64,000 nucleotides of DNA from Thermoanaerobaculia bacterium (GTDB lineage Bacteria; Acidobacteriota; Thermoanaerobaculia; Multivoradales; UBA5704), in assembly GCA_044226625.1 (NCBI GenBank), contig JBGAGQ010000026.1:1-64000 (forward strand), given 5' to 3'. Position 1 is the first letter of the stretch; every line of letters starts with the position of its first letter. Shown one piece after another: positions 6,971-20,745 of the stretch. Position numbers and translations under genes: made by a program. A model generated the notes under the pieces. That model was not told the DNA's origin. It ran no database searches and saw nothing but the letters and a program-made list of their open reading frames with translations.

Positions 6971-7111
6971 GGGGCCGTTTCGGCGCTCTCCGCGGAAGAT
7001 TTTGGCGAATCTCTCCGCGCGAGCGGACTGCCGAGCCGGCAACCGAGGACCCCGGGCCGACGCGTGGTCGCGCCCGGAATCATGTCACCGAACGTGGAGG
7101 ATTCCATCACC

Positions 7112-7522
7112 ATGAAAGCCAACTCCTACTCCGACAAGATCGACGCGTTCCAGACGACGGTCGACAACCTGGAACCGGACGTCGCGAAGTATCCCGGGCT
7201 CGCCGACATCTTCGAGCAGATGAAGACGCTTCTCGCCGAGCTGCGGCCGGCTCACGGCAGCGTCGAAGCGCAGCGAGGGAACCTGCGCGTCGCCGTCCAG
7301 GCGCGCCGGGAGCTCGCCCTTCGCGGCGTCCAGATCCACCGCCGCCTGTCCGCCGTGGTCGGCGCCCACCTCGGCTTCACCAACCCGGTCCTCGCGACCT
7401 ACGGGATCCTCCCGCAGGACAACTCGCGGCGCGGCCGGCGCCTCCCGAAGAAGAAGGAGGAAGCGACGAAGGCCCAGCCCGCCGCCATCGGCTTCACGCC
7501 TCCCGCGCCTCCCGCCACCTAA
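7112..7522 (+). CDS. Hypothetical alpha-helical protein with basic C-terminal tail
   Basis: GGAGG RBS at 7096-7100; MKANSYSDKID...RRGRRLPKKKEE; host-like codon usage; followed by a hairpin. Confidence 0.75.
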   Translation: MKANSYSDKIDAFQTTVDNLEPDVAKYPGLADIFEQMKTLLAELRPAHGSVEAQRGNLRVAVQARRELALRGVQIHRRLSAVVGAHLGFTNPVLATYGILPQDNSRRGRRLPKKKEEATKAQPAAIGFTPPAPPAT

Positions 7523-7552
7523 CGCCTGACGTCTGACCTCATCTCCCGCCCC

Positions 7553-7583
7553 GGGGCGGCCCGCGCAAGCGGGCCGTCCTTTA
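7553..7583 (+). terminator. Probable intrinsic terminator
   Basis: GGGGCGGCCCGC-GCAA-GCGGGCCGTCC followed by TTTA. Confidence 0.6.
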
Positions 7584-7606
7584 TCGAGCCTTCCCATCTC
7601 AAGGCC

Positions 7607-7687
7607 CTAGGATTCCGGTCGCCTGATCCTGAGGCCGAGCGGGGAGACGATCGTGAGAAGTCCTTCCTCATCCACCTTGAAGTGCAT
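7607..7687 (-). pseudogene. Internally deleted DUF5615 (PIN-like) toxin remnant
   Basis: Translates MHFKVDEEGLLTIVSPLGLRIRRPES*: a DUF5615-like N-terminus (MxFKVDE) joined directly to a DUF5615-like C-terminus; immediately downstream of the DUF433 gene. Confidence 0.6.
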
Positions 7688-7709
7688 CGAGGGGACGTGC
7701 ACCGAGGGA

Positions 7710-7949
7710 TCAGGAGGCGAGAGGCGTAACGAGCTCGGAGCTCAAGACGTCTGCCGCGTAGGCGAGCGCCGCGCGAAGATCCTGCTCGGACAGCTGAAGG
7801 TAGGAGCCCAAGATCTCCGCCGGCTGCATCCCATCGGCGAGGCTTCCAATCAACGTCCGCACAGGGATGCGGGTTCCCCGAATGCAGGGATCCCCGTGGT
7901 GAAGGTCGTCCGAGATGGCGATGTGGTCCTGCCAATGCACCCGGCTCAT
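7710..7949 (-). CDS. DUF433 family antitoxin
   Basis: HGDPCIRGTRIPV...LSEQDLRAALAYAA signature. Confidence 0.9.
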   Translation of the reverse strand: MSRVHWQDHIAISDDLHHGDPCIRGTRIPVRTLIGSLADGMQPAEILGSYLQLSEQDLRAALAYAADVLSSELVTPLAS

Positions 7950-8068
7950 GGAGTTCTCCCGTTCAGCGAAAGAGTACCACCCCTACATCGTAGGGGCCGA
8001 GCTGGTGCTCGGCGGTCCCAGGGAAAAGCGGTTGCCGGACTGGAGCCGAGCCCTTCGCGACCCGCGCG

Positions 8069-8485
8069 TCACCGAGCCGGAGGCGGACCCAGAAGCTCTT
8101 CGGCCCGCGTGAGCCCGCGCTCGAGGTCGCGGAGCAGCTGCGTCGCGGCCTTGAGCCACGGCGGCCGATCGGCCGGGGATTCCTTCTCCGCGACGCTCGA
8201 CACGACCTCGGCGAGGCCTTCTCGCGAGTGGCGAAGATCCGCGACCAATGCGCGGAGATGCGCTTTCGGCCAGGGCTCCGCCGGTTCCCGCGGGTCTCCC
8301 CCCTCCTCCAGCTCCAACAACTGATCGGCCAGCGCTTCGGAGAGGATGGCCAGGTTCGCGCGCAGCGCCGGATTCGCGAAGTGACACAGCACCGCCTCGC
8401 GAAACGGCGCCAGCTCGCGCCAGCGGCTGCCTTGCACCACCTCCAGGTCGAGGACCAGCCGCAGCTTGGCGGCTTCGGCCTTCAT
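8069..8485 (-). CDS. Hypothetical helical protein
   Basis: Starts MKAEAAKLRLVL; ATGA overlap with the upstream ORF. Confidence 0.6.
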   Translation of the reverse strand: MKAEAAKLRLVLDLEVVQGSRWRELAPFREAVLCHFANPALRANLAILSEALADQLLELEEGGDPREPAEPWPKAHLRALVADLRHSREGLAEVVSSVAEKESPADRPPWLKAATQLLRDLERGLTRAEELLGPPPAR

Positions 8486-8880
8486 GGTTCGCCCTCGGGC
8501 GGAACCGCGTCGCCCCCTTTCCACAAAGCGCCGAAGAGCTTCAACCCCGCCGGATCGTTGGGGTCGCTCTCGATCAGCTCGAGAGCGAGCTGGACGATGT
8601 CGATCTGGGCGGGCGAGAGCGAGGAGCGCTTCTTGACGCCCCGCACCCGTCGAACTAACGCCGGCAGGCGGTCGAACCGCCGCTGATGGTGGTAGATCGC
8701 CGCCAGCTCGACCAGAACGAAAACCTCGAGGATCGGCTGGCCGCATCTCCTGTGCTCGGCGGCGGCGCGAGTCAAAGCGGAAGCCGCGACGTCGAAATCT
8801 CCCGCGGCCGCGGCGCGACGGCCGGCCGCGACACGTGCGACGCGAGGAGCGGGGCGCCCGAGATTGCGGGGGGAGTCCAT
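8482..8880 (-). CDS. Hypothetical TPR-like protein
   Basis: Helical-repeat pattern (AAAAGDFDVAASAL...LVELAAIYHHQRRF); divergent from the XRE-TPR gene. Confidence 0.55.
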   Translation of the reverse strand: MDSPRNLGRPAPRVARVAAGRRAAAAGDFDVAASALTRAAAEHRRCGQPILEVFVLVELAAIYHHQRRFDRLPALVRRVRGVKKRSSLSPAQIDIVQLALELIESDPNDPAGLKLFGALWKGGDAVPPEGEP

Positions 8881-9041
8881 GTCGACAGCCTACGCACGGA
8901 TCCTTGAATTCGCGCCGCGGAGTCGGGCAACGCCCTGAAATTGGCCGTGCCGGTGGATATTTCCACTTCGCGAAATCTCGCCGGCTTGTCTCTCTCGCGA
9001 ATGGTGTAACCTCACGATCCAAACGCTTTCGGAGACCACGG

Positions 9042-10514
9042 ATGCCGAAAACGAAGGACCAGCTCTTCCCGCCGATCGGCGTCGCGCTGCACTACCTGCG
9101 CACCAATGCCAAGATCTCGCGAGAGGAGCTCGGGCGCCCTTTGGGCCTGCCTTCGAAGAGCATTTCCGACTTCGAATCGGGGCACCGAACGCTCCGGCGG
9201 GAGCTCGCGGAGCAGCTGCTCGCGGCGCACGGCATCGGCCCGCAGGCGCTCGACGAGGTGCTCGCCGACATCGCGATCCGGCGGGCGGTGACCTTCCCCG
9301 AAGGCACGATCCCGCTGCCCGCCGAGGAGCTGGAACGCCTCGCCCGCGAGGGGCGGGAGATCTCCCGCTGCTTCGTGTCGGAGGTGGCGGTCCTGCGCCG
9401 GCAGGCCCGAGCCCGGGCGGACCACGCCTCGGCGGCCGAGCTGTTCCAGCAGCTCGCGGCCGCGACACCGCACCAGCGACGCCTGTGGGTGACCCGCGTC
9501 GAGAAGTTTTGGCTCTGGGCGCTGTCGGTTCGCTTCGGAGAGGAGAGCGCCAAGGCCGCGTCGGACAGCGCCGCCCGCGCGGTCGAATACGCGAAGCTCT
9601 CCTTGCGCCTCGCGAGGCTCGCCCCGGCGAGCCCGAAGTTTCGCGCGCTGCTCGAAGCGCAAGCCTGGGCGTTCCTCGCGAACAGCCGGCGGGTCTCCGG
9701 GTATCTCCCTCGAGCCGATCTGGGATTCGCCCGCTCGACCCGGCTCTGGCGGGAAGGGGAAGGCGGCGATCCCGACCACCTGCTCGACCCGATGCGGCGG
9801 CTCGATCTGGAGGCTTCGCTCCGGCTAGATCAGGGGCGATTGACCGAGGCGCTCGCGCTGCTCGACCGCGCGCTCGCCGAAGGGCCGAAAGGGGTGGTGG
9901 CCGGGCGGCGGTTGGTTAAGAAGGCGGTCGCTTTGGAACGATGCGGTCAGCCGGAGGCTGCGCTCAGCGCACTGGACGAGGCCGAGCAATGCAGGGCCGC
10001 CGGAACCGACCGATGGCTCGATTGCGGCATTCCTTTCAACCGCGCGGTCAACTTCTGTCATCTCGGTCGCTACGAGGAAGCAATCCGTATTTTGCCCGTC
10101 GTGCGCGCCTTAGCGATCGAGCTAGGCAACGGGATCGACCTCGTGCGAATGGATTGGCTGGAAGCCCGCGCCGTCGCCGGGCTAGGCAGATCTGAAGAAG
10201 CGGCGGGGAAACTCCGTTGGGTCAAGAAAGAGTTCGCCGCCCGGGGCGATCTCTACGAGTCCGCGCTCGCTTCGATCGACCTAGCGGCCCTTCACCTGGA
10301 TCAAGGGAAACCGCGTGCCGCCCGGGAGCTGGCAGAGGACGTAGCAAAGCTTCTGGAGGTGCAGGGGGTACCCCGCGACCTTCTCGCCGCACTGGTCCTA
10401 TTCGTCCAGGCGCTCGAGCAGGAACAAGCAACCGCAGCAGCGGCGCGCGATCTCGTCCGGGCATTCGAGTGCCAACCGCCCCTCCTGGCTACCTCTCTTT
10501 CGGAGGCGCAGTGA
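9042..10514 (+). CDS. XRE-family HTH transcriptional regulator with C-terminal TPR array
   Basis: GGAG RBS; IGVALHYLR...SREELGRPLGLPSKSISDFESGHR HTH, then several TPR-like helices (LDLEASLRLDQGRLTEALALL; FNRAVNFCHLGRYEEA). Confidence 0.85.
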   Translation: MPKTKDQLFPPIGVALHYLRTNAKISREELGRPLGLPSKSISDFESGHRTLRRELAEQLLAAHGIGPQALDEVLADIAIRRAVTFPEGTIPLPAEELERLAREGREISRCFVSEVAVLRRQARARADHASAAELFQQLAAATPHQRRLWVTRVEKFWLWALSVRFGEESAKAASDSAARAVEYAKLSLRLARLAPASPKFRALLEAQAWAFLANSRRVSGYLPRADLGFARSTRLWREGEGGDPDHLLDPMRRLDLEASLRLDQGRLTEALALLDRALAEGPKGVVAGRRLVKKAVALERCGQPEAALSALDEAEQCRAAGTDRWLDCGIPFNRAVNFCHLGRYEEAIRILPVVRALAIELGNGIDLVRMDWLEARAVAGLGRSEEAAGKLRWVKKEFAARGDLYESALASIDLAALHLDQGKPRAARELAEDVAKLLEVQGVPRDLLAALVLFVQALEQEQATAAAARDLVRAFECQPPLLATSLSEAQ

Positions 10515-10596
10515 GTTCCTTCGCTGCCGTTCCAGCTAGGCGGCGGAACTCCCCTCGCCGCTGGGCTCTGCCGGACGGAAGCGAAGGTTCGAGCCC

Positions 10597-10917
10597 TTAT
10601 TGCTTGCAGCTTTCGCTAGTGCCTAGACCGCAGGCTCCTCCTGCCATTACGGATGTCGTGCCACAGCGACCGTTCGAATCGAGATTACAGCCGCTCGGCG
10701 AGGAGGGCCTCTCTACAGGTGGGGGCGCCGCGCCGCAGCGACCGTCCGGATCAAGGGCGCACCCGCTCTCTGCCCAAAGCGACGACACGACGCCACGCAG
10801 CCAGCCACCGAAGTCCCACCGGAGGGGAACCGCGCCGGCCGGCGCGGCGGCCGAGAGCAGGGCGACCAACGCGGCGGCGAGGGGCAGGACGGACGTCCGA
10901 GACCGAAACGTAGACAT
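10597..10917 (-). CDS. Small secreted Cys-rich peptide precursor with two GCxLDxxGRC motifs
   Basis: Strong AAGGAGG RBS; Sec signal ending APAGA; Trp-rich amphipathic segment; GCALDPDGRC and GCNLDSNGRC; 106 aa. Confidence 0.75.
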   Translation of the reverse strand: MSTFRSRTSVLPLAAALVALLSAAAPAGAVPLRWDFGGWLRGVVSSLWAESGCALDPDGRCGAAPPPVERPSSPSGCNLDSNGRCGTTSVMAGGACGLGTSESCKQ

Positions 10918-10986
10918 CGGAAACCTCCTTTTCGAAGGCGCCGTCTTCACCGGCCAGAACGGCAGGCGTTTGCGCCCTCGCGGAGT

Positions 10987-11893
10987 ATGGAGCGGCCGGA
11001 CGTGGAAATCCGGAATAGCAGTCGGCCTACTCCGCTCCCTCCGAGGCTGGAGCCGCGAGCAGTTGGCTCGCGCCGCCGGCCTGCACGCCTCCTCGATCGG
11101 CCGGCTCGAAAACGGCCGCACCCCGCGCCCCGGGACGCCGGAGAAGATCCGCCGCTCGTTCGGCCTATCGCTAGCGACCTGGCGACGGCTCCTCGACCTG
11201 ATCGCCGACTGTCGCCGGGAAATGTCGGCCGGAGCCGCCCCCGACCCGGTGGCCGAGATGGCCGAGATGGCTGAGATGGCTGAGATGACCGAAGCCGATC
11301 CGTTCGAAGACGCCCTCTCGATCCTCGTGCCGCGAGTCCTCACCGCGTTGACCGCGCTCCCCTCGGCCGCGATCCCGGCGCCCCCTCCCCCGCTCCCCAC
11401 CGCTGCCGACCGCACCCGAGGCACCGAGCTCTGGGAGCGGCTCCGCCCCCTAAACACCGCGGATCGCCGAGAGCTGATCGCCATGGGCGAGGAATACTCC
11501 TGCTGGGCCCTCGCCGCAAGGCTCGCCGAAGAGAGCGAGACGATCGCTCCCCTACGCCCACACGAAGCGCTCGCGCTCGCCGGAATGGCCGACCGAATCG
11601 CCGAGACCGCCGCGATGCCCAACCGCTTCCGCGCGCGGCTCCGGGGTCTGACGACGGCGGCTCTGGGTTACGCGAGAATGTTCGCCGGCCACCGGGAAGG
11701 AGCGGAAGCGGCGTTTCGGAGGTCGGACGAGCTGTGGGCCGCGGGGGCGGGTGGGGATCCTGGTGGGCTGGTGGATGGGGGGCGGCGGGTGGAGATGAAG
11801 GCGAAGGGGGTGGCGGGTGCGGGGGTGGGCGGAGGGTGGGGCAAGTGGTGGCGGGGTGAGGGAAAATTTAGCCGAAGGCTTGGATCGTTCTAG
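10987..11893 (+). pseudogene. Second XRE-HTH/TPR regulator paralog, apparently frameshifted near the start and C-terminally truncated
   Basis: GGAG-t-ATG at 10987 gives MERPDVEI, then one extra C before GIAVGLLRSLRGWSREQLA (HTH, other frame). Similarity to 9042-10514 (WALAARLAEES; GGDP..L.D) ends in a G-rich tail. Confidence 0.6.
11252..11287 (+). repeat. 9-bp tandem repeat GCYGAGATG x4 (AEM x4)
   Basis: Read directly in sequence. Confidence 0.9.
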
Positions 11894-12018
11894 GCTATCT
11901 CAGAGACTCGACAAGGGTTTGGTTCGATCTCACGAAAGGAGTTCTCGTCGGTGCATGCGGAGTCCCGGGAGGTCCCGGGCGCCGTCTCTGAGGGTGAGCG
12001 TGCACAGGAAGACGCCTC

Positions 12019-13563
12019 ATGACCGAGCGGATCTTCATCAGTAGCGTGCAAAAGGAACTGGCCGCGGAGCGCCGGGCGTTGCATGACTTCATCCAGGGTG
12101 ACGCCCTGCTGCGGCGCTTCTTCGACGTTTTTCTCTTCGAGGATCTGCCCGCCTCCGACCGGCGCGCCGATGACGTCTACCTTGAGGAAGTGGCCCACTC
12201 AGGTCTCTATCTGGGCCTCTTCGGTGACGAATACGGATCGGTCGATGCTGTGGGGGTTTCGCCCACAGAGCGCGAGTTCGACGAGGCTACCCGGTGCGGC
12301 ATCGCGCGCTTGATCTTCGTACGCGGTGCCGACGACGCGCGGCGCGACCCGCGCATGCTGGCGCTGATCCGCAAGGCGGGCGGCCAACTCATCCGGAAGC
12401 GCATCACCGATGTCGCCGATCTAACCGGCGCGGCCTACGCGAGCCTCGTGGAGCACCTCGAGCGGACCGGACGCTTGCGCACGCGACCCTTCGACGCGGC
12501 GGCCTGCCCGGGCGCGACCGTCGACGACCTCTCGCCCGACCTGCTCGACCTCTTCCTGTCTCGCGCCCAGTCGCAACGCGGATACGCGCTCGGACCCGGC
12601 ACGCCGATGCCCACGGCGCTTGCGCACCTCGACCTCCTCGACGGATCAGAACCCAGCCATGCGGCCGTGCTGCTCTTCGGCACGAAGCCCCAGCGCTTCC
12701 TCCCCAGCTCCGAGGTCAAGTGCATGCACTTCCATGGCAAGGAAGTGCGCAAACCCATCCCGTCCTACCAGATCTTCAAAGGCACCGTGTTCGAGCTCGT
12801 CGACCGGGCCGTCGACTTCGTCCTCTCCAAGCTCGCGGCGAGGGTCGGCACTCGCGCAAAAAGCAATGAGGCGCCGCTGACCTACGAGATTCCACGCGAG
12901 GCGGTCGCCGAAGCGGTCGTCAACGCGGTAGCTCATCGCGACTACGCGAACAACGCGAGCGTGCAGGTCATGCTCTTCGCCGACCGGCTCGAAGTATGGA
13001 ATCCCGGTAGGCTGCCTTCCACCCTCAGCTTCGAGCAGCTCACTCGACCCCACGCCTCCATCCCGCGTAACCCGCTCGTGGCGGATCCGATGTTTCTCGC
13101 TCGGTACGTCGAGAAGGCAGGGAGCGGAATCCTCGACATGATCGCTTTATGCAGCGAGACCGGGCTGCCGGCACCGGAGTTCCGGCAGGAGGGCGGCGAG
13201 TTCGTCCAGACGCTCTGGCGGCCCGAGCCGGCGGAAGCCTCGACCGAGGGGACCGCGCAAGTCACCGCGCAAGTCACCGCGCAAGTCACCGCGCAAGTCG
13301 AAATTGCGGGAGCGGACCTCTCGGCTGAGGTGCAGCGCCTCCTCCACGCGACCATTGGTGAGATGGCGGGCCGTGACATTCAGGAACGTCTAGGCCTCAA
13401 GCACCGGGAGCATTTCCGCAAGTTTTACCTGAAACCTGCGCTCGCAGCCGGTCTGATCGAGAGAACCACCCCGGACAATCCGAAGAGCCGGCTACAGCGC
13501 TATCGCCTCACCGAGATGGGGCGTGCGTGGCTGGCGACCCGCGAGGGGCGAATTGGGCCGTGA
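12019..13563 (+). CDS. DUF4062 + HATPase_c_4 (RecG C-terminal-like) + Fic-type C-terminal wHTH protein
   Basis: RIFISSVQKELAAER (DUF4062); EAVVNAVAHRDY...RNPLVA...EKAGSGI; YLKPALAAGLIERTTPDNPKSRLQRYRLT. Confidence 0.85.
   Translation: MTERIFISSVQKELAAERRALHDFIQGDALLRRFFDVFLFEDLPASDRRADDVYLEEVAHSGLYLGLFGDEYGSVDAVGVSPTEREFDEATRCGIARLIFVRGADDARRDPRMLALIRKAGGQLIRKRITDVADLTGAAYASLVEHLERTGRLRTRPFDAAACPGATVDDLSPDLLDLFLSRAQSQRGYALGPGTPMPTALAHLDLLDGSEPSHAAVLLFGTKPQRFLPSSEVKCMHFHGKEVRKPIPSYQIFKGTVFELVDRAVDFVLSKLAARVGTRAKSNEAPLTYEIPREAVAEAVVNAVAHRDYANNASVQVMLFADRLEVWNPGRLPSTLSFEQLTRPHASIPRNPLVADPMFLARYVEKAGSGILDMIALCSETGLPAPEFRQEGGEFVQTLWRPEPAEASTEGTAQVTAQVTAQVTAQVEIAGADLSAEVQRLLHATIGEMAGRDIQERLGLKHREHFRKFYLKPALAAGLIERTTPDNPKSRLQRYRLTEMGRAWLATREGRIGP
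13252..13299 (+). repeat. 12-bp tandem repeat ACCGCGCAAGTC x4 (TAQV x4)
   Basis: Four perfect copies in the linker of 12019-13563. Confidence 0.95.
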
Positions 13564-13846
13564 ACGGGAAGCACGTCGCCTTGGCGTGGCCGAGACGAGG
13601 AGCCACCTCTCCGAGGTGCTCCGAGAGGTGGCGTCGGGTCCGACCTTCATCCACAAGCGAGGTAAGGACCTTGCGGTCATTCTGAGCATCGAGGAGTACG
13701 AACGGCTTGCCGGAAGCGAGCGGTCCACGAACACAGGCGGCGCCGCGATTCTTCGCCGCATCGAAGCCCTCAAAGAACGATTCGGCGGAGGGTTCGATTT
13801 CGAGCCTCCGCGCCTCGATTTCAAACCCGCCGTGCACAGCTTCTGA
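13523..13846 (+). CDS. Phd/YefM family antitoxin (orphan; start uncertain)
   Basis: GVAETRSHLSEVLREVASGPTFIHKRGKDLAVILSIEEYERL; no toxin ORF follows. Confidence 0.7.
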   Translation: MRGWRPARGELGREREARRLGVAETRSHLSEVLREVASGPTFIHKRGKDLAVILSIEEYERLAGSERSTNTGGAAILRRIEALKERFGGGFDFEPPRLDFKPAVHSF

Positions 13847-13898
13847 ACCTGCTCACCGTTGGGAAGCCCTCGAGCCCAAGAAGTCCGCGCGACCCGGG

Positions 13899-14474
13899 CT
13901 ACGGTCGATCCCCGTCGAGAGCGATCTCGGTTCCGTCGAGAATCGCCTCACGCACGGGCTTCCATTTCGCGTCGTCGAGCTGCTGGTAGGGAATCTCCCA
14001 GGTGCCGCCCTTGCCTTGGCGCGCGCCGAGAATCAGCTCATGACGGCCCGCGACGAAGTTCAAGGCCCCGGGGCCGGGATCGCAGCCTGAAAGGAGCAGG
14101 CGCTCATAGCGCGGAAGGTTTGGCTGGAGGCGATCGAGCGCCAGACCGTCCGTCGTCTCGGCGAGAAGGTAGACGAAGCCGTCTCGGCCGATTGCGATCG
14201 CTCGATAGGTCGCTCGGGGAACGGTTCCCGGCGCCGCCATCGCGCCGCTGAATCCACCCTTCTTCAAGGCTTCGTCGAGGCGTTTCTGTTGCGCCTCGCG
14301 GTCTGCCGGTTTCCGCTCGAGCCACTCGATCTTGCCGGAGCCGAGAACCAGCTCGTTCTTGAGCAGGCCCGAGGGCGAGTAGTGGCGGACCCTCGGCGAA
14401 AACTGGTGCGCCAACCACAGGTCACCTTCCGGGGTGAATGCGATCGACTGAGGCGGTACTTCGACGCAACTCAA
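13899..14474 (-). pseudogene. C-terminal fragment of an NHL/beta-propeller protein
   Basis: IAFTPEGDLWLA and IAIGRDGFVYLL blade motifs; 5' end has no RBS or signal and coincides with the switch to low-GC DNA. Confidence 0.5.
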
Positions 14475-14579
14475 ACTCAGCTATAGTTCCAACATCTAGG
14501 CAAGTAACGGGCCCGCAAAGAGCACCCTAGACTCTTGCCGCAGTTCAGCCTGCTCTAACCGAATAAGAGATGTGTCGAC

Positions 14580-17171
14580 ATGCCGCCTACTGCCGATGTT
14601 TTCTCCGAGATCCTTAACTGGTCAAAAGATCGACCGGGCTGGCAGCGCGATGCCCTCCGACGATTGTTTTCTGAGGGAGAACTCTCCGCAAAAGAAGTAG
14701 AAGAACTCTTACAGCTCTGTAAGTCTGCGCATGGCCTCGCCGAACCGACTTCTCCTAGGGTCCTCATGAAGGAGCATCTCGCCACTAAGGGGGATGGCGT
14801 TGACACGACCTGTTTGATTACGTTGACTCATCATCGCGGCGTGAATGCACTTGCTGCCGAACAAACCATTACTTTCGGCTCACATCTCACGATCATTTAC
14901 GGCCAGAACGCGGCGGGAAAATCCGGATATGCACGCATTCTCAAGCAGGCTTGTCGTTCTCGATCCACCGAACAGATCCTTGGCAATCTCCTTAGTGGCT
15001 CTGTACCCGTAAAGTTGCAGGCTACAATAACATTTCGCCAAGGTCTCCAAGGTCAGGGTGTCAAATGGACAACTGGCTCACCTTCTTCAGACGCGCTCGC
15101 AGCAGTCAGTGTTTTTGATTCAGCATCAGCACCTGTATATCTACGAGACAAGACTGATGTCGCCTTCCGACCTTTTGGGCTTGACATCTTCGACCGTCTA
15201 GTCAGCCTTTGTAGTGAAGTACGAGGTAAGCTGGAGAGTGAAAAGGCTAAGCTGAACTCTCAGGTGCCAAACCTCCCCAAGCTTCCCGCCGGCACTAAGT
15301 CACAAAGATTGGTTGAGAATCTAACGTCGCTTACAAACCCTGCCGTGGCGCAGAATCTGGCGACGCTTTTGGAGAATGAGCAAGCGCGTCTAGAAGAACT
15401 GAGAGCACATCAGAGGGATCTTCTTGCAGCTGATCCTAAGAAGCGAGCGCAGGATCTCACCTCGAAGGCGGAACGCATAGACTTCCTTAGCCGACATGTC
15501 AGCACTCTATTCTCACTCTTTCGCAGAAGTTCCCTCACGGAGCTTGGAAGTAGCGCTGAAGCCCTTCGGGTCGCCCAAGCCTCCCTGGAATTGGTGCGAT
15601 CCGCCGCGCTTACAACCGAATTGCTTCTAGGAACTGGAGAGCAAACCTGGCAAGAAATGTGGAGAGCCACCGCCGAATTCTCGAAAGTAGCCTATCCTGA
15701 GGCAGAGTTTCCCTTCTTGGGAAGCGGAGCCCGCTGTCCCTTCTGTCAGCAAGAGATTAGCGGTGAGACCGAGAGACGACTCCGGAATTTCGCCGAATAC
15801 GTCGCCTCAAGCGCGCAGGCGCAGGCCCAAGAGGCAGAAAAAACTTACTCCACGGCTCTTTCCAAAGTAAGACGAGCAGTTGTAAGACCCTCAGAGATTG
15901 ACTTGATAGTCAACGAGCTTCGGTTGGACAATCCGCCTTTGGCCCAAGAAGTTGAGATCTTTTTCGACTCCACTATACGCACTTTAGAGGGAATCGAGGG
16001 TGCCTTATCCGAGGGCGTTGGTTTCTTGGCAGGGCTCACGAAGACTCCTGAAGCCGAATTGCAGTCGCTAGCTTCACGGCTGCGCGAGAGGGCCGATCAG
16101 CTTCTTGGAGAGAAGCCGGTCATGAGCCCCGAAGCCATAACTGAGCTTAGGGAGCTTGAAGCACGAGCCACTCTCGCTTCGGGTTTGCAGGTTGTTTTGG
16201 ACGAGATCGAGCGCAAGAAGCGTCTAGCCGCTTATGACCAGTGCATTGGAGATACAACGACCAATGCTATTACAAAGAAAAGCACAGAACTCACCTCCCG
16301 CTTGGTCACAGATCAGTTGCGAGCCGGATTCCAAGAGGAACTTGGGAGTCTTGACTTTCGACACTTGGCGGTCGAGATCCAAATGGCCGGCGGTGCAAAA
16401 GGTACGCTGTTCCATAAGCTTGTTTTCAGCAATGCTCCTGGAGTTGCTGTAACTAATGTACTCAGTGAGGGAGAATCGAGGACCCTCTCGCTCGCGGCAT
16501 TCCTCACCGAGCTCAAGACCGCATCAAGCCAAAGTACGATCATCTTTGATGATCCGGTCTCGTCTCTCGACGAGGAGTGGCGAGGACGGATTGCACGTCG
16601 GCTTGTCACCGAGGCGAAAAATCGACAGGTTATCGTCTTCACTCACGACCTCCTATTTCTGAGATTCCTCATGGATGAGGCTAGGCGTCAGGAGGTGCCT
16701 TGTGCTCACCAGTACGTTCGGCGAGAGTATGAAGCCGGTATATGCTCGCCTGATCTTCCTTGGGTTGCAATGAGCAAAACCGATCGCATCGGTGTCCTCC
16801 GTAACCGCTGGCAGGCTGCCGAGAAGACGTTTCGCACTGACCGAACGAACTACGAAGCTATTGCCCGCGACATCTTTGGCCAACTACGCGAAGCATGGGA
16901 ACATGCCACAATGGAAGTCTTGTTGAATGATGTTGTCGAGCGTTATCGTCACAGTATTGAGACCCAGAAGGTTAGGGTTCTTCATGACATTACTCCAGAT
17001 GACTATAAGGCTCTCGAAGAAGGAATGGCGGAATGTTCTCGCTGGATGCGTGGACACGATAGGCCATCCGCGGATGGAACTCCCTTTCCAGATCCGGAGA
17101 CCCTCAAGCTTCAGATTGAGACCTTAGCGACCTGGGTGCAGAGCATTCGAACGCGAAGAAAAAGAAAGTAG
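14580..17171 (+). CDS. Rad50/SMC-like ABC ATPase (AAA_13, RloC-like) with zinc hook
   Basis: Walker A GQNAAGKS, CPFCQQ hook in coiled-coil, LSEGE signature, FDDPVSSLD Walker B/D-loop, VFTHD, C-terminal RWMRGH; markedly lower GC. Confidence 0.85.
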   Translation: MPPTADVFSEILNWSKDRPGWQRDALRRLFSEGELSAKEVEELLQLCKSAHGLAEPTSPRVLMKEHLATKGDGVDTTCLITLTHHRGVNALAAEQTITFGSHLTIIYGQNAAGKSGYARILKQACRSRSTEQILGNLLSGSVPVKLQATITFRQGLQGQGVKWTTGSPSSDALAAVSVFDSASAPVYLRDKTDVAFRPFGLDIFDRLVSLCSEVRGKLESEKAKLNSQVPNLPKLPAGTKSQRLVENLTSLTNPAVAQNLATLLENEQARLEELRAHQRDLLAADPKKRAQDLTSKAERIDFLSRHVSTLFSLFRRSSLTELGSSAEALRVAQASLELVRSAALTTELLLGTGEQTWQEMWRATAEFSKVAYPEAEFPFLGSGARCPFCQQEISGETERRLRNFAEYVASSAQAQAQEAEKTYSTALSKVRRAVVRPSEIDLIVNELRLDNPPLAQEVEIFFDSTIRTLEGIEGALSEGVGFLAGLTKTPEAELQSLASRLRERADQLLGEKPVMSPEAITELRELEARATLASGLQVVLDEIERKKRLAAYDQCIGDTTTNAITKKSTELTSRLVTDQLRAGFQEELGSLDFRHLAVEIQMAGGAKGTLFHKLVFSNAPGVAVTNVLSEGESRTLSLAAFLTELKTASSQSTIIFDDPVSSLDEEWRGRIARRLVTEAKNRQVIVFTHDLLFLRFLMDEARRQEVPCAHQYVRREYEAGICSPDLPWVAMSKTDRIGVLRNRWQAAEKTFRTDRTNYEAIARDIFGQLREAWEHATMEVLLNDVVERYRHSIETQKVRVLHDITPDDYKALEEGMAECSRWMRGHDRPSADGTPFPDPETLKLQIETLATWVQSIRTRRKRK

Positions 17172-19794: not shown

Positions 19795-20745
19795 ATGGAT
19801 TTCGAGACGTTGGCCCGGGCGCGTGCCCAATTCGACGAGATGGTCGCCGAGACGCGGCCCCAACTCCTGCGCTATTGCTCGCGGATGCTCGGCTCGGCGG
19901 TGGACGGCGAAGACGTCGTGCAAGAGGCGTTGGCCCGCGTCTACTATCGGCTGCCGCGGCTCGGCCAGGTCGATAACCTGCGCGCCTGGCTTTTCCGGGT
20001 CGCGCACAACAAGGCGCTCGATCATCTGCGGCGTTACGACGTGCGCTTCGGCGAGCCCTTGGACGGAGAGCTTCCCGTGCCGCTCGACGAATCCCCGGTC
20101 GAGGCCGCGGAGCTCGCCGAGTGGGGGCTCTCCTACTTCACCCGGCTCACTCCCCTCCAGCGCAGCGCGGTGATTCTGAAGGACGTCCTCTCCTATAGCC
20201 TGGAGGAGATCTCGGAGATCTTGGACGCGAGCGTGCCGTCGATCAAAGGGGCGCTCCACCGCGGCCGAGCGGCCCTGCGATCGGCGGGAGCGGAGGCGCC
20301 TCGCGTTTCTCTCGAAGGGGAGGACGCCGCGCTCCTGCGGCGCTACGTTACGCTATGGAACGCGCGCGATTTCGACGCTCTGCGCGCGATGCTCGCAGAG
20401 GACGTGCGCCTCGACCTGGTCGAGAAGGCCGAAAAGAGCGGCGCCGCGTCGGTCGCCAACTACTTCGAAAACTACTCGCGGCTCCCCGCCACCTGGGCCG
20501 AGCTGGGAACCGTCGACGGCCGCATCGCGATCCTGGTCCGCGACAGCCCCCTCGAGCCGCCGAGCTACTGCCTGTTCCTCCGCTTTCGGAACCAAAGGAT
20601 CTTGGCCATCCGGGACTATCGCTACGCCCGCCACGTGTTCGCCGAGGCCGAGTGGAAGGCGGGCGAATCCCACCAGGCGCCGGGGCCGAAAGCCTGCGCC
20701 GCGCACGGAGGCGCGGCGCAGGGCTTCGAGCCGGAGTTCTCTTAG
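19795..20745 (+). CDS. ECF sigma-70 factor with C-terminal SnoaL-like domain
   Basis: RMLGSAVDGEDVVQE, AWLFRVAHN, SIKGALHRGRAAL, WNARDFDALRAMLAEDV. Confidence 0.9.
   Translation: MDFETLARARAQFDEMVAETRPQLLRYCSRMLGSAVDGEDVVQEALARVYYRLPRLGQVDNLRAWLFRVAHNKALDHLRRYDVRFGEPLDGELPVPLDESPVEAAELAEWGLSYFTRLTPLQRSAVILKDVLSYSLEEISEILDASVPSIKGALHRGRAALRSAGAEAPRVSLEGEDAALLRRYVTLWNARDFDALRAMLAEDVRLDLVEKAEKSGAASVANYFENYSRLPATWAELGTVDGRIAILVRDSPLEPPSYCLFLRFRNQRILAIRDYRYARHVFAEAEWKAGESHQAPGPKACAAHGGAAQGFEPEFS

Follow-up and report, generated by a model that had tools for sequence, protein, structure and literature searches.

Do diderm bacteria use genetically encoded peptide signals that are read by tetratricopeptide repeat (TPR) proteins? 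The question is raised by positions 9042–11893 of a 64,000-nucleotide stretch of DNA from a Thermoanaerobaculia bacterium of the phylum Acidobacteriota (GenBank assembly GCA_044226625.1, contig JBGAGQ010000026.1, positions 1–64,000; hereafter the window). Here, a 106-residue open reading frame (ORF) for a putative exported propeptide (10597–10917, minus strand) lies between the gene for a regulator with an XRE-type helix-turn-helix (HTH) and TPRs (9042–10514, plus strand) and a second XRE-type gene (10970–11893, plus strand). We found that genes of the peptide and regulator families occur side by side far more often than expected by chance. We consider the case evenly balanced that the locus is one copy of a lineage-specific, RRNPP-like propeptide/receptor signalling cassette in a diderm. 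The resemblance to RRNPP systems would most likely be one of working, rather than of membership of that family by descent.

The propeptide gene and its pairing with the regulator

The 106-residue ORF forms the 3′-terminal part of a longer open frame (10597–11622). As the preliminary description of this DNA had recognized, it has its own Shine-Dalgarno sequence, AAGGAGG (10924–10930), located 6 nt before the ATG at 10915–10917. Ten homologues of 82–125 residues were found among 5.8 billion clustered proteins; one of them is annotated merely as a hypothetical protein of an Acidobacteriota metagenome-assembled genome (MAG). The ATG and the Shine-Dalgarno sequence are invariant across six orthologous loci. 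When codons 1–52 were compared with three orthologues, substitutions were distributed 24/12/50 over codon positions 1/2/3. Because of these homologues, the invariant start signals and the excess of third-position substitutions, the ORF is, as judged from sequence comparison, a real and conserved gene. On both strands it is overlapped by longer frames, which are due to the high G+C content. The G+C content at the three codon positions did not discriminate the propeptide frame.

Residues 1–29 (10831–10917) look by inspection like a Sec-type signal peptide, with a positively charged N-terminus, a hydrophobic core and the residues A-G-A preceding V30. They are followed by a putative Trp-rich amphipathic pro-helix (residues 30–51; 10765–10830), delimited by inspection and by alignment of relatives. 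A six-frame motif search then located two cores, GCALDPDGRC (core 1, 10735–10764) and GCNLDSNGRC (core 2, 10663–10692). The signal sequence, the Trp-rich segment and both motifs had been read in the same way in the preliminary description, to which we add a degenerate third core (10606–10638), at a place where relatives have an intact one. All of these elements are on the minus strand. In all six frames of the 6.6-Mb genome, the strict, stop-free pattern C..DP.G.C occurs nine times, always within one of five such ORFs, and is evidently not a chance pattern. Neither Pfam nor NCBIfam provided a family for the window peptide or for eight diverse relatives. A weak match to the NCBIfam model 'GCG_CRPN prefix-to-repeats' was rejected, at 12.3 bits being below the cut-off of 24.

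The pairing of the two genes was examined with a location-blind hidden Markov model (HMM A1), built from the window peptide and its database homologues only. In the genome from which the window comes, this model gave 10 matches at E ≤ 10, in nine ORFs, and each of the 10 had one of 27 tblastn regulator matches no more than 1.5 kb away. Eighteen of the 19 peptide ORFs of this genome have a regulator within 1.5 kb and, conversely, 18 of its 22 full-length regulators (family profile A2) adjoin a peptide ORF. A regulator homologue was also present in 28 of 29 peptide-anchored loci from other genomes. The reverse test was made with a genome of another genus, g6 (G022; 9.9 Mb, 86 regulator matches), where the best 30 regulator-anchored loci, some of them overlapping, contained a peptide ORF in 27 cases with A1 and in 28 with profile A3. 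Random 4.2-kb segments of the window's own genome served as the control and gave a peptide match in only 3 (A1) or 8 (A3) of 600; at least seven of these eight A3 matches were themselves cassettes. The pairing is thus far beyond chance, and the enrichment of peptide ORFs beside regulators, which had been named as a check when the locus was first described, is found in both directions.

The exception among the 19 peptide ORFs is on contig C60 (G000:C60:15866–16168, plus strand); it has no regulator homologue within 1.5 kb, which may mean that the precursor is an orphan or that its partner is more divergent. In G022, cassettes are often clustered, with two full-length regulators around one peptide gene or with cassettes in tandem (L062/L066, L063/L070, L064/L065 and L069/L072).

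Core motif, receptor fold and family distribution

We collected 80 distinct peptide ORFs and aligned 32 full precursors of 80–136 residues. In the general plan, a signal peptide of the Sec type is followed by a conserved Trp-rich amphipathic pro-segment and, at the C-terminus, by one to four cores. The core can be written G-(C)-x-Φ-D-P-x-G-(x-C), where Φ is hydrophobic, and in its Cys form G-C-x-Φ-D-P-x-G-x-C. Asp was found at position 5 in 131 of the 155 cores that fit G-x-x-x-x-P-x-G, a selection that fixes G1, P6 and G8. In one clade, the usual core is replaced by x-P-D-G.

The cores are flanked by Cys in 56 of the 80 ORFs. Almost all of these (52/56) have a convergent full TPR regulator, and on the opposite side 47/56 have a divergent gene of the XRE family, which is short in most cases and full-length in some. 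Flanking Cys is absent from 20 ORFs, about a quarter, and 12 of the 20 lie directly upstream of the regulator and in the same direction. Many Cys-less precursors terminate precisely after the G of DPxG. The clearest case of repetition is an 80-residue precursor from a sister-family genome, G025 (L097, 2646–2888, minus strand), which consists of a signal peptide and four exact RSAMIDPNG units running to the stop codon, encoded by a 27-bp DNA repeat in 4.1 copies. This precursor is convergent with a TPR_MalT-type protein in which there was no N-terminal HTH match. The preliminary description had taken the Cys loop as the defining feature. Because about a quarter of the peptides lack Cys, the disulfide loop is, on the alignments, a feature of a subfamily, and the invariant core is ΦDPxG.

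The cores of one precursor resemble each other more than they resemble those of other precursors, with an identity at the variable positions of 0.52 within versus 0.31 between precursors, a difference reached in none of 2000 shuffles. Peptide type also follows the regulator tree. The four regulators that accompany double-Cys peptides in the window's own genome group in a single clade, with support 100/99. When 42 convergent regulators were placed in a tree, the DPLG, DPHG, DPVG and xPDG core types fell into well-supported clades that span genera, with about four independent switches of core type.

The regulator at 9042–10514 has 490 residues and is the candidate peptide receptor. It matched HTH_31 and, above the cut-off, TPR_5 in Pfam, with TPR_MalT below the cut-off; the convergence of the peptide ORF on an XRE-HTH and TPR gene, noted earlier, is borne out. 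Inspection revealed no signal peptide or transmembrane segment. An AlphaFold2 model (predicted local distance difference test score 94.2, predicted template modelling score 0.86) places the HTH at residues 11–61 and a long helix at 94–139, followed after residue 143 by about 16 helices that form a helical-repeat superhelix. With Foldseek, generic TPR proteins ranked top by E-value, and the highest query TM-scores (0.49) were those of peptide-bound Rap structures. An independent structure search with the same model gave Z scores of 23.9 for APPBP2, 21.2 for LGN, 20.5 for NprR-NprX (root-mean-square deviation 4.2 over 291 aligned residues), 20.3 for the phi105 Rap with peptide (8rte), 18.6 for MalT domain III, 17.4–18.4 for three other Rap proteins, 16.2 for PlcR and 15.0–15.6 for AimR. 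The modelled fold is that of peptide-binding TPR receptors, without being specific to RRNPP. No RRNPP-specific Pfam model was matched by any of the 11 receptors scanned, and no RRNPP chain was among the PDB sequence matches to the regulator at E ≤ 1.

Among 106 family members, pairwise identity is 43–46% in the TPR part, 31% in the HTH and 20–23% in the linker. The TPR part contains nearly invariant polar residues (e.g. N214, R217, R252, R369, W372 and D406), and its conservation would fit recognition of an invariant peptide core. A complex prediction with TPR residues 86–490 and propeptide residues 30–106 scored 0.18 against a mark of 0.32, and weighs neither way.

The peptide HMM matched 26 of 41 genomes, the window's own included. 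Matches were found in 22 of 24 other genomes of the same acidobacterial family, with up to 35 in one genome, and in 3 of 16 genomes from other families of the order; the cores of the sister families lack Cys. Within the lineage there are 20–60 cassettes per genome. A sample of 301 genomes from the phylum gave peptide-HMM matches only in this genus, a weak negative in that 15 candidates per genome were scored and Cys-less forms were missed. The closest labelled records are MAGs tagged Acidobacteriota, Holophagales or Thermoanaerobaculia, and an Atlas look-up returned only Acidobacteriota clusters, with scores <0.9. GenBank phages gave no relative of the regulator, and viral contigs gave none of the Cys-type peptide. 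A search of sequencing runs listed one DNA run, from a bioreactor metagenome, with 0.89 of the words, and no RNA run. The regulator family is large: of 1.84 billion cluster representatives, 3756 matched at E ≤ 1e-3 and 539 at E ≤ 1e-30. A related-locus search with P0003 alone returned 4 close loci only. Four regulator relatives (P0016, P0018, P0032 and P0036) have 1090–1159 residues and match in two stretches; they may represent a fusion of two XRE-TPR units, or two neighbouring genes that were annotated as a single one.

Proposed mechanism and competing explanations

Gene pairing, precursor anatomy, receptor fold and family expansion are the observed elements. From them we infer the intervening steps of export, processing, disulfide closure, re-import, binding and transcriptional response, and hence a signalling role for the cassette. 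The precursor would be exported to the periplasm where, in the Cys subfamily, each core would close a 9-residue disulfide loop. Cleavage of the precursor would yield peptides of 8–10 residues, to be released and then re-imported, perhaps by an Opp/Dpp-type route; the genome contains one SBP_bac_5 (OppA/DppA-type) gene (G000:C90:8724–9827) and six Omp85-family matches, the latter consistent with a diderm. The peptides would bind to the adjacent cytoplasmic XRE-HTH regulator, in the concave groove of its TPR superhelix, and would thereby alter its interaction with DNA at conserved candidate operators. The divergent second XRE gene, short or full-length depending on the cassette, would probably set the basal state of the shared promoter.

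In its widest form, which we offer tentatively and think slightly more apt to fail than to stand, the proposal is that a lineage of Acidobacteriota (MAGs labelled Thermoanaerobaculia/Holophagales) runs tens of parallel peptide-pheromone channels per cell. These would make up the first RRNPP-like family in a diderm, with multi-copy and often disulfide-cyclised DPxG peptides, XRE-TPR receptors and a TPR-less paralogue as a switch at the peptide promoter. If this is true, genetically encoded peptide signals read by TPRs extend from Bacillota to diderm bacteria, and the question arises of how peptides get across the outer membrane, outwards and inwards. A further consequence would be a new set of orthogonal peptide/receptor pairs, 20–60 per genome, with compact signals of 8–10 residues. 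Synthetic peptides and recombinant receptors could address the hypothesis without culturing the organism.

Several points weigh against such a mechanism. In a diderm, the peptide would have to pass the outer membrane on the way out and again on the way in. Generic eukaryotic TPR proteins (APPBP2, LGN and subunits of the APC) match the regulator fold as well as RRNPP receptors do. An invariant DPxG, a conserved TPR part and tens of cassettes in one genome together predict cross-talk, or else specificity that lies elsewhere. The likeness of cores within a precursor would equally result from recent tandem duplication, and cores of one precursor can also differ, as do the four of L012. Co-duplication of neighbours alone would likewise yield the co-clustering of receptors and peptides, and the mechanism does not account for the second XRE gene.

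An alternative that we regard as unlikely, yet the best of the competitors, is that the peptide is a regulated secreted output (a disulfide-looped antimicrobial, bacteriocin-like, metal-binding or matrix peptide) and that its dedicated XRE-TPR regulator senses some other, cytoplasmic ligand. Adjacency and co-duplication would be expected just as much of a regulator that has a single target gene, and the HTH diverges faster than the TPR part, as if the specificity of paralogues were one of operator recognition. A weak, sub-threshold Pfam match to a defensin-like family (15.5 bits against a cut-off of 25) points in the same direction. Such an output is, however, difficult to reconcile with multi-copy short cores that lie at the very end of the protein and run up to the stop codon, which are typical of released short peptides and not of a folded effector, or with cysteines that are dispensable in about a quarter of the family. 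In addition, the scan of neighbouring ORFs revealed no adjoining immunity, export or processing gene, and 20–60 dedicated one-gene regulons per genome would be unusual.

The layout of the precursor raises a second alternative. Multi-core precursors of ribosomally synthesized and post-translationally modified peptides (RiPPs) have a similar arrangement of leader and then cores, and here a helical 'leader-like' segment precedes the repeated cores. The peptides could accordingly be RiPP-type precursors that are modified by enzymes encoded elsewhere, with the TPR regulators controlling their expression or binding the precursor, but we judge this improbable. A Sec signal peptide precedes the 'leader', so that modification would be periplasmic, and the nine peptides scanned matched no RiPP family in Pfam or NCBIfam. 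No modifying-enzyme family was found in the flanks examined (neighbouring ORFs 7064–17171), in line with the preliminary description, which had seen no RiPP-modifying enzyme next to the peptide gene.

A toxin–antitoxin-like, defence or envelope-stress module, in which an exported amphipathic mini-protein perturbs or reports on the membrane and the XRE proteins repress, is very improbable: a two-gene module with an XRE-type HTH protein, present in many copies, is characteristic of toxin–antitoxin systems, there are weak HipB-type and antitoxin-type HTH matches, and the window copy is in a variable region near a DUF433 gene and the candidate defence gene PDC-S06, but no PADLOC family was found for the cassette proteins beyond the weak HTH matches, no PADLOC, Pfam or NCBIfam toxin family was matched by the small protein, the genes flanking paralogous cassettes are not conserved among cassettes, the repeated C-terminal DPxG cores and the TPR superhelix are left unexplained, and a small protein with a signal peptide, encoded convergently with the regulator, is not the co-transcribed cytoplasmic toxin of a type II system.

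The window copy, its surroundings and known systems

The second XRE gene (10970–11893), divergent from the propeptide gene, encodes a short paralogue comprising the HTH and the N-terminal helical half. The preliminary description had called it a second XRE-TPR gene; its HTH and its divergent orientation stand, but the Pfam scan gave no TPR match, and the protein aligns just with residues ∼12–260 of the regulator at 9042–10514. It is not a local truncation, because complete short ORFs of 229–334 residues hold the same position in 20 related loci (L009–L012, L015, L016, L020, L025, L027, L029, L034, L038, L041 and L054, together with L057–L060, which are orthologous loci fetched a second time from the same genomes). 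The orthologues have 258–308 residues and a common end point.

In the window, alignment A5 with five orthologous loci revealed the junction of a 72-bp deletion (11009–11010), which took the leader and ATG of the short XRE gene. The sole in-frame upstream start is a TTG at 10970, and expression of the gene in this genome appears uncertain. The window cassette is partly decayed, as far as its sequence can tell, because core 3 is degenerate, core 2 has DS instead of DP and the start of the short XRE gene is lost. The short XRE gene also contains a 9-bp repeat in 4.8 copies (11250–11292), giving an AEM repeat in the protein that orthologues lack, and a G-rich 3′ tail (11700–11893) with Gly/Trp-rich residues; orthologues stop ∼30 residues sooner.

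The regulator and propeptide genes are convergent and separated by an 82-bp gap. An imperfect inverted repeat at 10505–10559, with 20-nt arms that are 75% complementary, is a possible bidirectional terminator; a scan for consensus terminators made no call there and found terminator-like sites at chance level. Between the propeptide and short XRE genes, the orthologues have a palindrome of 10 + 10 nt with a 3-nt spacer (consensus ACGCCGGCCG-N3-CGGCCGGCGT), of which the window retains a degenerate form at 10947–10969, a candidate operator. In the L010 orthologue, the palindrome is altered symmetrically in both arms. Upstream of the regulator, alignment A6 of five loci delimits a conserved non-coding block (8958–9015), a candidate promoter/operator that contains TTCGCGAA (8967–8974) and TCGCGAA (8995–9001), 27 bp apart. 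The 10-mer motif TTCGCGAAAT was not enriched within the window, and a sigma-70 promoter scan of 8700–12100 found nothing.

On the other side of this block, divergent from the regulator, is a gene for a small TPR-like protein of 132 residues (8482–8880, minus strand) with a coding-type G+C pattern. At least one orthologous locus shows the same synteny, and a weak paralogue adjoins the cassette on C57. Downstream of it, a conserved hypothetical protein of 138 residues (8069–8485, minus strand) had no Pfam or PADLOC match; its gene is syntenic in all four of four orthologous loci, with a paralogue adjoining the C46 cassette, and on this conservation the protein may be a further cassette member. 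Orthologous loci have in common just the cassette genes. No transporter gene adjoins the cassette among the neighbouring ORFs scanned.

The cassette lies in a variable region beside DUF433, DUF4062/Fic-like and PDC-S06 genes. The DUF433 (antitoxin-like) gene is upstream (7710–7949, minus strand). A plus-strand gene at 12019–13563 encodes a 514-residue protein with DUF4062, HATPase_c_4 and Fic-like C-terminal domains, which resembles the PNTD domains of Argonaute-associated proteins in PADLOC; a perfect 12-bp repeat in four copies (13252–13299) encodes its VTAQ repeat. The product of 14580–17171 (plus strand) is an 863-residue AAA-type ATPase that matches the PADLOC candidate defence family PDC-S06 from end to end (E 1.6e-211). 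This gene lies in a stretch with a G+C content of 0.55–0.57, compared with 0.65–0.76 around it, and because of this lower value an acquired island is suggested. Further downstream, 19795–20745 (plus strand) encodes a protein in which an ECF sigma factor is joined to a SnoaL-like domain.

An excerpt from PMC10075063 defines RRNPP systems by a TPR receptor of 250–500 residues beside a small Sec-exported propeptide, and describes RRNPP_detector as applied only to Firmicutes and viruses. The gene pair of the window agrees with that operational definition. The preliminary description of an RRNPP-analogous cassette is thus upheld in its architecture and in the enrichment of the pairing; its disulfide loop is not a defining feature and its second XRE protein has no TPR match. 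RRNPP(A) systems are presented as a trait of Bacillota in the accessible parts of PMC9765709, which mention no other phyla, and of PMC12700828. A literature search on RRNPP in Acidobacteria(ota) or diderms, on the motif and on quorum sensing by XRE, TPR and peptide, with subscription journals and supplementary files outside its range, gave nothing relevant, and no published description of the acidobacterial cassette was found.

Like the RRNPP(A) systems (Rap-Phr, NprR-NprX, PlcR-PapR, PrgX, Rgg-SHP and AimR-AimP), the proposed signalling cassette has a cytoplasmic TPR receptor gene beside that of a small, putatively Sec-exported propeptide with the putative signal at its C-terminus, and it occurs as many paralogous copies per genome. 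The predicted receptor fold matches those of NprR, Rap, PlcR and AimR, and PlcR, NprR and AimR have an N-terminal HTH, as does the acidobacterial regulator. In contrast to those systems, the host is a diderm, the receptors have no sequence homology to RRNPP receptors, the precursors are 80–136 residues long with a conserved Trp-rich pro-helix, the core is an invariant DPxG that is often Cys-flanked, and Cys-type cassettes are convergent and include a second XRE gene. Pheromone duplication in tandem has been described for phage Rap-Phr systems, and Rap3T/Phr3T and Rap105/Phr105 similarly have several putative mature-peptide copies per precursor, according to an excerpt from PMC11343458. The structure of the phi105 Rap with its peptide is among the best fold matches to our regulator model. 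The acidobacterial systems differ from these in having up to four or more near-identical units, sometimes as exact tandem DNA repeats, an HTH on the receptor and peptides that are perhaps disulfide-cyclised.

Two further systems share single features with the cassette. Cyanobacteria, too, are diderms, and in their PatS/HetR system the target of a short, ribosomally made peptide is a cytoplasmic DNA-binding protein, as proposed here; to our knowledge, PatS has no Sec signal, TPR receptor or multi-copy cassettes, and its motif is unrelated. MalT-type TPR sensors are similar in that some proteins of the regulator family match TPR_MalT better than any other TPR model and in that domain III of MalT matches the regulator fold. 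In contrast to MalT, the acidobacterial regulator has no nucleoside triphosphatase domain, carries an XRE-type rather than a LuxR-type DNA-binding domain, and is paired with the gene for a secreted peptide.

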